From IMG/VR virus record IMGVR_UViG_3300031414_000029: DNA of 53,718 bases; one strand, 5' to 3'. The first letter of the stretch is position 1; the number at the start of each line of letters is the position of its first letter. The stretch comes from a virus. The position numbers were made by a program, and so were the translations under genes. The notes under the pieces were generated by a model, which saw only the letters and a program-made list of their open reading frames with translations, had not been told where the DNA came from and did not search any database. Positions 1 through 53,718 of this stretch are shown here, piece after piece.

Positions 1-127
1 CTGGGCCAGACTCCAACTCAGGCTCCGGTTGAAAACAAAGCATCTGAAGAACAGGTTGATGAAGCAATGAAAGCAGAACTGGAAGCTCAGGCTAAAGCCA
101 AAGCAGAACGTGAAGCCGCTGCTGCTG
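1..127. repeat. Window-closing overlap: 1-127 is identical to 53592-53718 (unit genome 53,591 bp, circular map)
   Basis: Read directly: both copies run ctgggccagactccaactcagg...gaagccgctgctgctg. The ORF still open at 53718 continues in frame to the stop at 163-165. Confidence 0.95.
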
Positions 128-165
128 CATCTGGTGGCGATGCCCCGACAGACCTGCCATTCTAA
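1..165 (+). CDS. 3' end of the ssDNA-binding-like protein gene that starts at 52881 (wraps through the junction); ends ...GGDAPTDLPF*
   Basis: Frame 1 is open from base 1 to TAA at 163-165 and is the continuation of the ORF open at the window end. Confidence 0.8.
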   Translation: MGQTPTQAPVENKASEEQVDEAMKAELEAQAKAKAEREAAAAASGGDAPTDLPF

Positions 166-4804: not shown

Positions 4805-6813
4805 TGGCAGATTTGGGCGAAGAATACGACAACACAGTCGTCTTCCACTTATTAAAGTTTTATGGCGACTTACTCAAAGTTAGCCGTTCAAGATTCTGCC
4901 TACAAACTCTGCCAATACTGCGTAAGTATATCGCGAGCAGTCCAGAAATTATTCGTGATTACTACGAAGCTCTTGACGCAGAGATTGAAGGTCAGGGCTT
5001 AAAAGATAACGCTGTGTTGCGTTCACTTGTCACAGCTCAACGAGAAAGATTGGAAGCTGGTGACTCAAAAGATTCCACGGCATACGCCAGTGAAATCGAA
5101 AAGATGATTAAGGATGGTAAGACAGACCGTGTACCCGGTTCGACTATTGAGGCCGACACTGCTGAGCACGATGCTACCTCTGAACTCATTGACAAAATTC
5201 TTGATGACCCGCTAAACGTAGACCCAACTGTAATTTCTAAAAGAGTTGCAGATGAAGTCAGGAAGATTTTAACTTCTAGCTTTGAGCGGTTCGGCAAATG
5301 GTCATTCCATATTCAAATGGGATTCCCATTCCAGTCGCAGGATTTCCACGATGTGATATTCGATGTGGGGCAGCAAATTGTTGACGGTAAAATTGACCGT
5401 GTAATCATAACAATTCCTCCACGACATTCGAAGACACAACTGCTATCTATTGCGCTGCCTTTGTATTCTTTCTGCCACAACGTAACCAGCCACAACATTA
5501 TTACTTCCTATGCGGAAGACGTTGTGTTGGAATCATCTGGCTATATTCGTACTGTGATGCTTGACCCATTGTTCCAGCGCATATTCCCAAATGTTCGTAT
5601 CGACCCCGGCAAGCGTTCGCTTGAGCGTTGGGGTACAACGAAACAGGGCGTAATGCATGCTGTTCCAACGGGCGGTAAAATGACAGGTAAAGGTGCTGGC
5701 TTACTGGCTCCTAAATACTCTGGCTGCTTTGTCGTAGATGACGTTATCAAACCAAAAGATGCGTATTCCGACACAGTGCGAATGGAAATAAATGACCGTT
5801 ACGATAACACATTTATGTCTCGTCTTGCTAACGATGGTGTGATTACAAACCCAGATGGAACCTTGCAGAAATGTGCGAGAACTCCAATGGTTATCATCAT
5901 GCAGCGTGTTCACGATTCAGACCTTGTTGGTTATCTGTTGCGTGGCGGTTCGTCTGACAAATATCATTACCTCAACATTCCTGCAATTGTTGAGAAAGAT
6001 ACTGGTTCTGCCGAGTATTACGACAGGCTCATTAAGAAGCAAAACTATACGCATGCGATTCCAATCTTATATGATTTGAAACGAGATGCCGAAAAGTCTG
6101 CTCTATGGCCGTCACGTAAAAGCCTCGAATCTCTCGAAGCAATGAAGTTGGCAAACCCGTACACTTACAACAGTCAGTATGCAGGCGACCCAACGGCAAA
6201 TGGTACTGGATTAATTAAGGAAGATTGGTGGCGTGAATACGACCCTGAGACTTTCGATTATTCCAAAATTGTTCGCTCGTTTATTACAGCGGACACAGCT
6301 TCGACTGCCAAAACATATTCAGACTATGCAGTGTTGAAACATTGGGGCGTCACGAAAGAACGTGATGTTTTCTGTCTGGATATAATGCTCGGCAAGTATG
6401 AAGTACCAGAGCTTAAAAAAGCTGTAATTGATTTCTGGAATAAGCGTAATAAGTTTGTCTTGTCAGCGCCTTGTTTAATTCCACGTGCATTGTACATGGA
6501 AGATAAGTCGTCTGGACAATTCCTTAACCAAGAGTTTGCTCGCGCAGGTAATATCAGGTTGATGCCTGTACCGCGTGACAAATCTGGTGGCGATAAGGTT
6601 GCACGATTCCTGAATACCATTCCATATTTCTCAACTGGTAAAATATTCTGGCCTGCTGGTCACGAACATATTGACCATGTTAAACGAGAAATTCTTGGAA
6701 TGACTTCTCTTGGCTCCGGCACTGGTCATGATGACTGCTGCGATAATGTCTCTGATATGGTCGCAATTGAATTCTCCGGCATAAGCGCCAATTACTCTAG
6801 TTGGGTTGACTAA
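4804..6813 (+). CDS. Terminase large subunit
   Basis: 669 aa directly upstream of the portal gene. ATPase-like IPPRHSKTQL and CFVVDDVIKP (Walker B-like), and a C-terminal nuclease-like FITADTAST...HDDCCD. Confidence 0.8.
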   Translation: MADLGEEYDNTVVFHLLKFYGDLLKVSRSRFCLQTLPILRKYIASSPEIIRDYYEALDAEIEGQGLKDNAVLRSLVTAQRERLEAGDSKDSTAYASEIEKMIKDGKTDRVPGSTIEADTAEHDATSELIDKILDDPLNVDPTVISKRVADEVRKILTSSFERFGKWSFHIQMGFPFQSQDFHDVIFDVGQQIVDGKIDRVIITIPPRHSKTQLLSIALPLYSFCHNVTSHNIITSYAEDVVLESSGYIRTVMLDPLFQRIFPNVRIDPGKRSLERWGTTKQGVMHAVPTGGKMTGKGAGLLAPKYSGCFVVDDVIKPKDAYSDTVRMEINDRYDNTFMSRLANDGVITNPDGTLQKCARTPMVIIMQRVHDSDLVGYLLRGGSSDKYHYLNIPAIVEKDTGSAEYYDRLIKKQNYTHAIPILYDLKRDAEKSALWPSRKSLESLEAMKLANPYTYNSQYAGDPTANGTGLIKEDWWREYDPETFDYSKIVRSFITADTASTAKTYSDYAVLKHWGVTKERDVFCLDIMLGKYEVPELKKAVIDFWNKRNKFVLSAPCLIPRALYMEDKSSGQFLNQEFARAGNIRLMPVPRDKSGGDKVARFLNTIPYFSTGKIFWPAGHEHIDHVKREILGMTSLGSGTGHDDCCDNVSDMVAIEFSGISANYSSWVD

Positions 6814-37766: not shown

Positions 37767-38132
37767 ATGTCTACAACTCAGAAGCAGTACGATGACACTA
37801 ACACAGGCATCATCGGCAAAAACGACTACAAACAGAAAGAAACTCATCCTGACCAGCGCGGACGTGTAAACGTTGCCGGTATCTGGTATTGGGTTTCTGG
37901 CTGGGATAAGAACGCTGGCGGTCGTCAGTTTACTTCTCTGGCATTCACCGAAATGACTCAGGATGAAGTTGACAAAATGATGGCGAAACGTGCTGAAAAG
38001 CAAGCGCCACAGCAGCGTCCACAACAGCAGCAACAGCAGCAGGCTCCTCAGCAGTCAGCCCCTCAGCAGCAAACTCCACCGACTCAGAACAACGAGCCGC
38101 CAATGGACTTTGATGACGACATTCCATTCTAA
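37767..38132 (+). CDS. Small protein carrying a copy of the host SSB linker and C-terminal tip (...APQQSAP...NNEPPMDFDDDIPF)
   Basis: The last residues, EPPMDFDDDIPF, are identical to the E. coli SSB C-terminus as I recall it. A Gln/Pro-rich linker precedes them. The ~75-aa N-terminal domain is not a canonical SSB OB fold. Confidence 0.7.
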   Translation: MSTTQKQYDDTNTGIIGKNDYKQKETHPDQRGRVNVAGIWYWVSGWDKNAGGRQFTSLAFTEMTQDEVDKMMAKRAEKQAPQQRPQQQQQQQAPQQSAPQQQTPPTQNNEPPMDFDDDIPF

Positions 38133-38566
38133 TGGAAGAAACAGAATCCATCGAAGCCCGACTCATTGAGAAGGGCGATGTTATTTTCGTGGAGAATAAG
38201 TGGATGATGGTTGTCAGCACTTGGACAAATCCACGTTCTCCGTATAACAGAATCGGTGTGGTTGATGAAGGAAAGGGAATGAAAGATATTCCCTTATCCT
38301 TAAAACTGTACCTGACAACAAGGTATTATCGTAAAACTATGCAGCCTACAAAGCAACTGCATTTCTCGTCAGCTGTTGAAGAAATGGTTTCTCTTCAAAT
38401 TGCAATAGAGGAATACGATAAGGCAAATAATTTGCCTGAAAAGGTGAAACTGGAAAACACTAACTTCGAAGTAGAAGCTGTTATTATCCAGCGTCAGTGT
38501 CATGAGAAAATGATGGCCTCATTCAATCGTCTGAAGAACGCAATCAACGCGGTTCAAAAGCCGTGA
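38132..38566 (+). CDS. Hypothetical protein
   Basis: ORF track; taATG overlap. Confidence 0.55.
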   Translation: MEETESIEARLIEKGDVIFVENKWMMVVSTWTNPRSPYNRIGVVDEGKGMKDIPLSLKLYLTTRYYRKTMQPTKQLHFSSAVEEMVSLQIAIEEYDKANNLPEKVKLENTNFEVEAVIIQRQCHEKMMASFNRLKNAINAVQKP

Positions 38567-40829: not shown

Positions 40830-41360
40830 ATGTCTCCAAGTGAAATAAAAAGCCAGATTGAGCGGGCAACAAACATCCGTAACCTCTGTGTCCGATTTAA
40901 TAATTTCGAGGCATGGATTGATGCGGATGAATATGCAGATACCATCAGTATGGCTGATTTTCTGGAATTCCATTGCGATTTGACAGAAGAACAGGCCAAA
41001 AATCTCGTTGATGGTGACTTCATATTTGTTCACGCAGAAGGTTTGGCTGCAAAATTCATTAAAAATGATTGCTTCGATAAATTGGGCTATGAAAACGCCT
41101 CAATCTTTGCTTTAAATAGCTCAGATGAAGCGGCGATAGCCGGATTAAGTATTGGGATTGACCCAAACAAACTGTCAGATGCATATGTCGGGCAATATGA
41201 TAATTTCGAAGCATTTGTTGAAGAACGCTGGGACGAACAGAACCCAGAACTTCCTGAATATATCAGAAGGTACATCAGCTATGAAGCAATCGCGACAGAT
41301 TGGAAAGCGTGCGGAGACTTCTCAGAAGTCGATGGCTATGTCTTTGCCAATACAGCCTGA
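40830..41360 (+). CDS. ArdA-like antirestriction protein (DNA mimic)
   Basis: Acidic protein. The C-terminus ELPEYIRRYISYEAIATDWKACGDFSEVDGYVF parallels the ArdA pattern P..L..YIDY.A...DL...G.F....G..F. Confidence 0.55.
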   Translation: MSPSEIKSQIERATNIRNLCVRFNNFEAWIDADEYADTISMADFLEFHCDLTEEQAKNLVDGDFIFVHAEGLAAKFIKNDCFDKLGYENASIFALNSSDEAAIAGLSIGIDPNKLSDAYVGQYDNFEAFVEERWDEQNPELPEYIRRYISYEAIATDWKACGDFSEVDGYVFANTA

Positions 41361-44399: not shown

Positions 44400-44774
44400 A
44401 TGGCTAAAGTTATTCAAGTTACTCAGTACGAAGCAAACGACGGTTCACTGTTCCTGTCTGCGGCAGAAGCCGATGCGCACGATTTCAAACTGGAAAACGG
44501 TGAGAAAATCCGCGTCATGACCGAAGCGTTCCTGAACACCACCGGCGCAATCGACCGTAGCCGCAACATGCAGGCGAACGTAATCGAAGCGTTCCTGGCC
44601 TTCACTCTGCCGCGTCTGGCTGCTGGCACCGAGCTGGAAGAAGTTGAGCGTACTGTGTTCGATACTCCGAAACCGGAGAAAGTTGTGAGCGAAGGCGCTG
44701 CTGATGCTGCTGCTGATGCTGTTGCCCCGGCTGACAAAGTTGAAGGCGAAGACGCTCCAGCACCACTGTTCTAA
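44400..44774 (+). CDS. Abundant-looking acidic protein ending ...EGEDAPAPLF (start moved to ATG 44400)
   Basis: AAGGAAATCGCCAAAATG context. ctg/cgt/gaa/ggc codon bias like the capsid gene. Own promoter-like motif and terminator. Confidence 0.65.
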   Translation: MAKVIQVTQYEANDGSLFLSAAEADAHDFKLENGEKIRVMTEAFLNTTGAIDRSRNMQANVIEAFLAFTLPRLAAGTELEEVERTVFDTPKPEKVVSEGAADAAADAVAPADKVEGEDAPAPLF

Positions 44775-52880: not shown

Positions 52881-53718
52881 ATGGCCCTTTTTCAAGCACC
52901 AACGAAAGATTCCGGTAAAGCACCTTCCAAAGCACCTCTGTTAGAATCAGGCGGCTATCCTGCTCGTCTGGTTCGTCTGATTGACCTCGGCAAACAGCCG
53001 GGTTCTGGTCAGTACCCAGACCCTTCATATAAACTGCTGGCGACCTTTGAGTTGCTGGACGAATACATGAAGGAAACCAATGAAGCTGGTGAAATCGTCA
53101 TGGTTCAAGACCCTGATGGTGAGCCAGGCGAAATGATTGGCAAAGACCTGCTGGATAAACCACGCTGGTTCGATTACGAATTCACCTATAATCCTGATGG
53201 ATTCATGGGTGACCGTTCGCACATCTACAAATTCATTTCTGCAATTGATGGCTTTGAAGTTAAGCCAGACCCGGCAAACAACATCGCTGGTCATCCGGCT
53301 AAACAGCTGAATGAAATGCTTGGCGAACCGCTGAACGTAACTCTGGTGTCTTACACCAAGAAAAGCGGTAAGAACGCTGGCCAGTTGGCTAACAAAATCT
53401 CTGGTTTCACTTCAATGAAAACCAAAGAGAAGCGCGAAGCTCGTGCTCTGGTTAACCCAACTATCTTCTTCGACCTCGGCAATCCTGATATCGAAGTGTT
53501 CAGCAAGCTGCCGGGCGGCGACCACGAGTTCGCAATCAAGAACCGTATTCTGAACAACTTGGAATTCAACGGCTCTAAACTGCAACTCGCGCTGGGCCAG
53601 ACTCCAACTCAGGCTCCGGTTGAAAACAAAGCATCTGAAGAACAGGTTGATGAAGCAATGAAAGCAGAACTGGAAGCTCAGGCTAAAGCCAAAGCAGAAC
53701 GTGAAGCCGCTGCTGCTG
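52881..53718 (+). CDS. ssDNA-binding-like protein (gp2.5-position), 291 aa in total; continues through the junction to base 165
   Basis: GGAGAAACAAAATG context. Position after the DNA polymerase. Ala/Glu/Lys-rich linker and an acidic tail ending DLPF. Confidence 0.55.
   Translation, partial: MALFQAPTKDSGKAPSKAPLLESGGYPARLVRLIDLGKQPGSGQYPDPSYKLLATFELLDEYMKETNEAGEIVMVQDPDGEPGEMIGKDLLDKPRWFDYEFTYNPDGFMGDRSHIYKFISAIDGFEVKPDPANNIAGHPAKQLNEMLGEPLNVTLVSYTKKSGKNAGQLANKISGFTSMKTKEKREARALVNPTIFFDLGNPDIEVFSKLPGGDHEFAIKNRILNNLEFNGSKLQLALGQTPTQAPVENKASEEQVDEAMKAELEAQAKAKAEREAAAA

Follow-up and report, generated by a model that had tools for sequence, protein, structure and literature searches.

A miniature SSB-like phage protein carries the host SSB tip on a small beta domain modelled as a non-OB fold

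Introduction

Phage and plasmid SSBs that end in the tip of the host SSB are well known, but they have an OB fold. A 121-aa protein with such an end is encoded in the window studied here, that is, the whole stretch of 53,718 nucleotides of the IMG/VR virus record IMGVR_UViG_3300031414_000029 that was analysed. The initial annotation had regarded its N-terminal domain as something other than a canonical OB fold. The question raised by this locus is what kind of domain carries the tip, where the tip came from and which partners it serves. In this study, we describe the protein (referred to below as the mini-SSB), its family, the positions of its genes and the role that it may have.

Results and Discussion

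The phage genome and the mini-SSB gene

The last 127 bases of the window (53592-53718) are a copy of the first 127 (1-127). This terminal repeat points to an assembly that is circularly closed or permuted, with a length of about 53,591 bp (~53.6 kb). The structural genes have approximately 75% DNA identity to those of Erwinia phage Y2, Pantoea phage SSEM1 and their relatives, and by its sequence the window is assigned to a Loessnervirus-like phage (Chaseviridae, Cleopatravirinae). The phage is predicted to encode its own replisome, which includes the following genes:

48825..50588, + strand: T7-type primase-helicase (phrog_239, E=2e-131; Toprim domain)
50662..52599, + strand: family A DNA polymerase (phrog_17, E=4e-97; PF00476)

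The mini-SSB gene lies about 10 kb away from the replisome genes, within a block of small early-type genes near ArdA. It is followed by a gene that overlaps it:

37767..38132, + strand: gene of the 121-aa mini-SSB-like protein (from translation), orthologue of Y2 gp18, SSEM1 gp19 and phiEcoM-GJ1 gp15
38132..38566, + strand: 144-aa gene (phrog_20048), whose ATG overlaps the mini-SSB stop codon by 1 nt (TAATG)

The mini-SSB ORF begins with ATG and has 121 codons, and a Shine-Dalgarno-like AAAGG is located a few bases 5' of the start. Promoter-like sites around the gene showed no excess over the shuffled expectation. Terminator-like sites numbered 5 against a shuffled expectation of 1.7, and in this local scan none was placed so as to delimit a transcription unit. 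The 144-aa gene and the mini-SSB gene are translationally coupled, and their order is kept in SSEM1 and Y2. Because it is co-conserved in these two phages, the 144-aa protein may be a functional partner of the mini-SSB. The window also contains an ArdA-type anti-restriction gene (40830-41360, + strand) and a ThyX thymidylate synthase gene (48164-48811, + strand).

Orthologues and the 'SSB' label

The mini-SSB matched phrog_7364, the Chaseviridae 'single strand DNA binding protein', with E=7.9e-42 over residues 6-91. Its identity to the proteins of SSEM1, Aioli and 4HA13 was 71-77%, and the same downstream gene follows in SSEM1 and Y2. For the window phage, then, similarity identifies it as a conserved gene whose orthologues are already annotated in Chaseviridae. 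Y2 gp18, SSEM1 gp19 and phiEcoM-GJ1 gp15 are annotated as "ssDNA-binding protein" and have the same tip at the end. In the ST32 genome paper, 'SSB' was assigned via BLAST to GJ1 gp15 (PMC6266442). The record of Vibrio phage VP2 reads "similar to Vibrio cholerae SSB", a wording that fits nothing but the tail. Judged from these sequences, the database label 'SSB' of the mini-SSB family is one of similarity only and follows from the tail.

Linker and tail

The mini-SSB is divided into the following parts:

37797..37952, + strand: conserved beta domain, residues ~11-62 (AF2 pLDDT 88-94; domain-only profile; conservation)
37959..38003, + strand: C-terminal alpha helix, residues 65-79 (AF2), present in the Chaseviridae subfamily and missing from many distant members
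38004..38090, + strand: Gln/Pro-rich intrinsically disordered linker, residues 80-108 (low pLDDT, composition), of varying length across the family
38091..38129, + strand: SSB-Ct acidic tip NEPPMDFDDDIPF, residues 109-121, which many gammaproteobacteria have unchanged at the end of their chromosomal SSB

The block-mean pLDDT of the AlphaFold2 model was 46-58 from residue 81 to the C-terminus, as for a disordered region. The protein ends in ...QNNEPPMDFDDDIPF before the stop codon (a longer stretch of the C-terminus reads ...TPPTQNNEPPMDFDDDIPF), and the E. coli SSB ends in ...SRPQQSAPAAPSNEPPMDFDDDIPF (PDB 1eqq; chromosomal ssb in L003). The final NEPPMDFDDDIPF of the mini-SSB is therefore identical to the last 13 residues of the E. 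coli protein. The initial annotation had claimed an exact tip of 12 residues; the E. coli sequence that it gave is right, and the identity is one residue longer. It had also proposed that part of the Gln/Pro linker is shared, and the string PQQSAP is indeed common to both linkers.

The match of the tail goes beyond chance. The profile of the mini-SSB family reached E. coli-type SSBs through the linker and tail, and only there, with E=5e-6 and 2e-5 for the E. coli and related SSBs. NCBIfam PRK09010 matched the mini-SSB in the tail only (E=1.6e-7), and all close homologues keep DDDIPF. The peptide NEPPMDFDDDIPF, followed by a stop, is encoded in at least 120 species of Enterobacterales, Vibrionales and Aeromonadales. 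The tip is thus shared by three gammaproteobacterial orders instead of being a mark of E. coli, and cannot identify the host of the phage.

Origin of the tail

A tail identical to that of the host raises the possibility of a recent host ssb fragment fused to an unrelated phage ORF, and the nucleotide alignment that the initial annotation had proposed as a check on recent capture was run. At face value, part of the result fits capture. In a blastn search against 5,426 E. coli genomes, the last 42 nt of the gene were 93-95% identical (39-40/42), and 12 of the 14 codons of the tail are the same as in E. coli ssb. However, the match was confined to these 42 nt, and nothing matched 5' of them beyond position 325, except for one weak match with E=1. 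The 60 nt 5' of the tail were at background level against 120 listed bacterial sequences with the same tail peptide (mean 24.9/60). Over the tail itself, the phage 42 nt had 32-41 identities with these 120 bacterial tails (mean 35.6), and the best two matches among them were from Vibrio species. The identity to E. coli is therefore at the top of, yet inside, the range set by codon constraint. Synonymous codons also differ among relatives: in SSEM1, only 8 of the 14 codons for this peptide agree with E. coli (counted from the codon listing). The tail-only blastn match, the synonymous differences and the 120-tail baseline all contradict recent capture from host ssb, and we consider it very improbable.

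DDDIPF was present in all of the ~80 close homologue clusters of the mini-SSB, which indicates that the tip is ancestral and has been kept by selection on the peptide. The tip variant of Y2, EPAMDFDDDIPF, was found in no sampled bacterial genome; small tip variants are thus not copies of host variants.

Structure and conservation of the core domain

An AlphaFold2 model of the mini-SSB was built on a 43-sequence alignment. The model has strands at residues 14-18, 30-36, 39-50 and 53-62 and a helix at 65-79, with a pLDDT of 88-94 over residues 11-75. As modelled, the core consists of four strands and a helix, unlike the five-stranded barrel of an OB fold. Residues 1-80 were recognised by no Pfam or NCBIfam model; the matches that the protein gave were of low complexity or confined to the tail. 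PF00436 matched neither the mini-SSB nor any of 43 homologues, and the NCBIfam SSB models covered only residues 60-121, with scores far under their cutoffs. With the family profile, PDB sequences were matched in the linker and tail and nowhere else, except for a weak match to Shiga-toxin B (E=0.08). The earlier view that the N-terminal domain departs from the canonical OB fold agrees with both the missing Pfam SSB/OB match and the model.

Residues N12, G14, N19, K22, P28, D29, G32, G38, Y41, W42, S44, W46, K48, F55, S57 and L58 are conserved across the family. The invariant aromatic and basic residues of the domain are Y41, W42, W46, F55, K22 and K48. Aromatic and lysine residues of this kind could serve base stacking and backbone contacts. 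The net charge of the domain is approximately neutral, and the domain is not detectably basic.

Foldseek found no significant match in the PDB for the core. The top fold matches were of the PC4/Sub1 type (MoSub1 4agh, 5zg9 and 4bhm), and they were weak (E 0.1-0.4, TM 0.2-0.36). Alignment with PC4/MoSub1 by hhalign gave a probability of 7.5% over 18 columns only (PD-x-KG...YW), and no PDB sequence match to the T5 SSB (4bg7) was obtained. The beta-beta-beta-beta-alpha unit of the PC4-like/Whirly type is present in the mini-SSB model (pLDDT ~90). The link to PC4 is one of resemblance, not membership.

Size of the family, tips and tandem copies

With a profile of the N-terminal domain alone (A2) and clusters defined at 50% identity, the family comprised 5,805 cluster representatives at E<=1e-3 and 1,717 at E<=1e-10. 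The matched representatives were mostly 70-170 aa long, and their public names were nearly all "hypothetical", now and then "SSB". Among the best 144 new representatives, 99 had an acidic-x-(I/L/V)P(F/W/Y) end; the tip types in this set included IPF (65), VPF (13) and LPF (11), and DDDIPF occurred in 27. This proportion indicates that a small beta domain, a variable disordered linker and an SSB-Ct-like tip are the rule and not a peculiarity of the window phage. Together with the 5,805 clusters, it indicates that domain and tip are selected together.

In 21 of 343 family proteins (6%), two adjacent copies of the domain stand ahead of the tip. These tandem copies are consistent with single-copy proteins acting as dimers, and it is because such two-domain versions exist that we infer a dimeric unit.

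Some records depart from this plan. In P0059, P0068, P0072, P0081 and P0119, which are SSBs or mini-SSBs, the protein runs about 15-20 residues past DDDIPF, so that the tip is internal. These extensions share the motif ...DDDIPFAPxGLxYGR... and represent either a real extension or read-through. In the long protein P0142 (1158 aa), the second half of the domain is matched in part 21 times, which suggests a tandem repeat that has been translated or else an artefact of assembly.

Genomic positions of family members

The places beside ERF, YqaJ and DNA polymerase genes are the usual positions of phage ssb genes, and members of the family were found in each of them. The mini-SSB gene is directly 3' of the gene of an ERF annealing protein in two contigs (L004 and L010), and in a Bordetella prophage it comes after a YqaJ exonuclease gene. 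In the PurZ-carrying contig L008, the mini-SSB gene (5001-5342) lies between DNA polymerase and purZ. Acinetobacter phage DMU1 (L135, 31372-31674) has the order helicase, polymerase, mini-SSB gene and PurZ, and both L008 and DMU1 carry the 2-aminoadenine (PurZ) gene set. In Vibrio phage VP2 (L134, 28861-29337), a two-domain version adjoins the polymerase; no purZ is annotated in this sparsely annotated record.

Unfiltered phmmer searches of all six-frame ORFs of the window, VP2 and DMU1 detected no canonical OB SSB, a result that divergent OB proteins could escape. The sole SSB matches in the three genomes were the tails of the mini-domain proteins.

On a temperate-phage-like contig (L007), the gene right after the mini-SSB gene (5308-5532) has an Acb2/Tad1-type hairpin domain, which is a mark of the anti-CBASS/Thoeris sponge family.

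Two other proteins with aromatic-ended tails

The initial annotation had pointed to two more acidic tails with a terminal Phe, and both were found as described and are conserved in relatives. They are ...GGDAPTDLPF of the protein in the position of gp2.5 (stop at 163-165) and ...EGEDAPAPLF of the protein at 44400-44774. The corresponding features are as follows:

52881..53718, continued at window 128-165, + strand: 291-aa protein directly after DNA polymerase A (junction reconstruction; phrog_862)
1..165, + strand: 3' end of the 291-aa gene, ending ...GGDAPTDLPF before the stop; bases 1-127 repeat the window end
44400..44774, + strand: 124-aa acidic protein (phrog_17419), with a folded N-terminus, an Ala/Glu-rich linker and a terminal ...APLF

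The 291-aa protein has an acidic, Ala-rich helix and a terminal ...DLPF. Its ~100 homologue clusters are all aromatic-ended (IPF, MPF, VPF, SPY etc.), and distant homologues have strongly acidic SSB-Ct-like tails such as DDLDDEIPF. The AF2 model of the protein has a pLDDT of 89. About 28 of its top 50 Foldseek matches were OB-fold ssDNA binders, the best with E=0.02 and none of them significant; a PDB sequence search gave nothing. Based on this model, the 291-aa protein may be an OB-type SSB that faces the phage replisome. Like T7 gp2.5, it is acidic, aromatic-ended and encoded in the replisome gene block, and its top structural matches are mostly OB-fold SSBs. It differs from gp2.5 in its larger size and long C-terminal helix, and the two show no significant sequence or fold match; gp2.5 was absent from its top 50 Foldseek matches.

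Orthologues of the 124-aa protein in Carltongylesvirus, Suwonvirus and Yersinia phages keep the folded N-terminus and the Ala/Glu linker and end in P(V/M/L)F (...APVF or ...QPMF). The order of the motif in this tail is unlike that of the SSB tip.

Proposed role of the mini-SSB

We believe that the mini-SSB is probably a dimeric miniature ssDNA-binding protein that links phage ssDNA to the partners of the host SSB. The ~60-residue aromatic, lysine-rich beta domain, probably as a dimer, would bind ssDNA, and the disordered Gln/Pro linker would hold out the host-type tip ...MDFDDDIPF. The substrate would be phage ssDNA that arises in replication or recombination or as an intermediate of injected DNA. 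Readers of the host SSB such as chi, PriA, RecQ, RecO, ExoI and Ung, and possibly phage partners as well, would dock on the tip, and as an outcome phage ssDNA would resemble SSB-coated host ssDNA. This work is likely shared with the polymerase-adjacent 291-aa protein, whose aromatic-ended tail would face the phage replisome.

We favor this role because the tip is identical to that of the host and conserved in all close homologues, and because members occupy ssb-type positions while the window, VP2 and DMU1 are without a detectable canonical OB SSB. The invariant residues are aromatic or basic and the top PDB fold matches are PC4/Sub1 ssDNA binders of the same topology, which also argues for it. 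The SSB tip of E. coli binds at least 17 proteins (PMC10018359). In phage HK620, the last six residues of the SSB load the phage Sak4 recombinase (PMC5928155). The mini-SSB need not be the replicative SSB, because its gene is about 10 kb off the replication module and a second SSB-like candidate exists. Counting against ssDNA binding by the mini-SSB are the weak PC4 fold likeness, the hhalign probability of 7.5%, the near-neutral charge, the origin of the label in the tail, and the absence from distant members of the helix that PC4-type dimers use.

The same tip could also work free in solution. The mini-SSB would then be an abundant early protein, a non-DNA-binding and possibly oligomeric scaffold that acts as a decoy of the SSB tip and competes for ExoI, RecJ/RecQ, PriA, Ung and chi. 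The effect would be to stop the host from restarting replication and carrying out repair, or to shield phage DNA ends and ssDNA from nucleases recruited by SSB. The gene does lie in a small early-type block near ArdA, outside the replication module, a separate SSB-like candidate adjoins the polymerase, and the domain is not detectably basic and is without a proven nucleic-acid-binding homologue. In lambdoid phages, erf-adjacent genes can also be inhibitors of host nucleases. However, invariant aromatic and lysine residues over thousands of clusters would be superfluous in a decoy, as would tandem duplication and, in phages where no further SSB is recognisable, a constant position next to the DNA polymerase. 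The genomic context thus makes titration less likely, and we regard a decoy as unlikely for this protein. The broader version, in which the beta domain does not bind and the mini-SSB and its thousands of relatives are soluble SSB-tip decoys or adaptors in phages and prophages, seems to us slightly less credible again. If it were true, the host SSB interactome (ExoI, RecQ, PriA, Ung and chi) would be jammed or redirected, or SSB-monitoring defences would be blinded, and a widespread class of host-takeover or counter-defence proteins would be hidden beneath the 'SSB' label.

Another explanation concerns the partners of the tip. It may serve phage proteins only (the annealing protein, the polymerase, the primase-helicase or the 144-aa protein), its identity to the host tip being inherited from an ancestral SSB-like module and not kept for host contacts. 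The loading of Sak4 by the HK620 tip (PMC5928155) is one precedent. T7 gp2.5 is another, since its C-terminal Phe serves it for the polymerase and helicase of T7 (bioRxiv 10.64898/2026.02.22.705581; PMC13402713). Members of the family adjoin ERF or polymerase genes, and the 144-aa gene is translationally coupled and co-conserved. Yet all 13 residues, including the NEPPM before the acidic hexapeptide, equal the host tip, which is hard to explain without host clients, and no ERF/RecT-type gene stands beside the mini-SSB gene in the window. We consider it improbable that the tip serves phage proteins alone.

Searches of Pfam, NCBIfam, PDB sequences and the literature found no curated family, solved structure or experiment for the beta domain. 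No paper on the mini-SSB family was found, and those on the SSBs of T5, T7 and HK620 treat other folds. The searchable literature does not mention that a non-OB core with thousands of clusters, mostly with an SSB-Ct-type tip, goes under the 'SSB' label. Here, the linker and tip sit on a ~60-residue beta domain that defines at least 5,800 clusters, from phages and prophages across many groups of bacteria, and in some phages with their own polymerase the mini-domain protein is the only SSB candidate. If ssDNA binding by the mini-SSB holds true, its core would be among the smallest SSB cores and a distinct structural class of SSB. The family bears on phage SSBs that trigger defence systems (Retron-Eco8, DARNA, AbpAB) and on recombineering, where annealing proteins need the tips of SSBs. 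For both kinds of work, a minimal SSB whose tip equals that of the host would be a natural reagent.

Comparison with known systems

The mini-SSB and the E. coli SSB (PF00436, TIGR00621) have the same three-part plan of a core, a disordered Gly/Gln/Pro linker and an acidic tip. The last 13 residues, NEPPMDFDDDIPF, are the same, and in both proteins the tip is expected to act as a hub for SSB-interacting proteins. The cores are different. That of the mini-SSB has ~60 residues, compared with ~115 in bacterial SSB, is modelled as non-OB and has no PF00436 match. Bacterial SSB is a homotetramer, whereas the mini-SSB is probably a dimer, as suggested by the tandem copies.

PC4-like proteins are dimeric non-OB ssDNA binders, including the SSB of phage T5 (PMC7549692, PMC7145681). 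The set contains human PC4, fungal Sub1, L. lactis YdbC (DUF2128), S. pneumoniae SP_0782 and T5 SSB (PDB 4bg7). Both dimeric (type II) and tandem-repeat (type I) forms occur among them (PMC7549692), which is comparable to the tandem copies of the mini-SSB family. A local motif is also similar, PD-x-KG...(E)YW in the mini-SSB and F-KGK...REYW in PC4-like proteins. However, the similarity is non-significant (Foldseek E~0.1; hhalign 7.5%), many members of the mini-SSB family are without the helix, and the bacterial SSB-Ct tip is not reported for PC4-like proteins.

Pfam DUF736 (PF05284), found mostly in mobile elements, is distantly linked to the mini-SSB family. The matches of distant members are weak but real (P0124, 22.6 bits against a cutoff of 22.1; P0186, E=1e-3), and a DUF736 phage protein was among the fold matches of the mini-SSB. 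The DUF736 profile matched neither the mini-SSB nor its 42 closest relatives. No function of DUF736 was found in the searchable literature, so the link gives no mechanism.

The 141-aa 'Ssb' of T1-like phages (Citrobacter phage CF1, Salmonella phage FSL SP-126) has a nearly identical Gln/Pro linker and an identical NNEPPMDFDDDIPF tip, whereas its small core has no Pfam match and is unrelated in sequence to the mini-SSB core. The same linker and tip on an unrelated core indicate that they behave as a module, which appears to move between cores. Records of this 141-aa 'Ssb' in our set are P0085, P0090 and P0116, from T1-like phages and Salmonella prophages.
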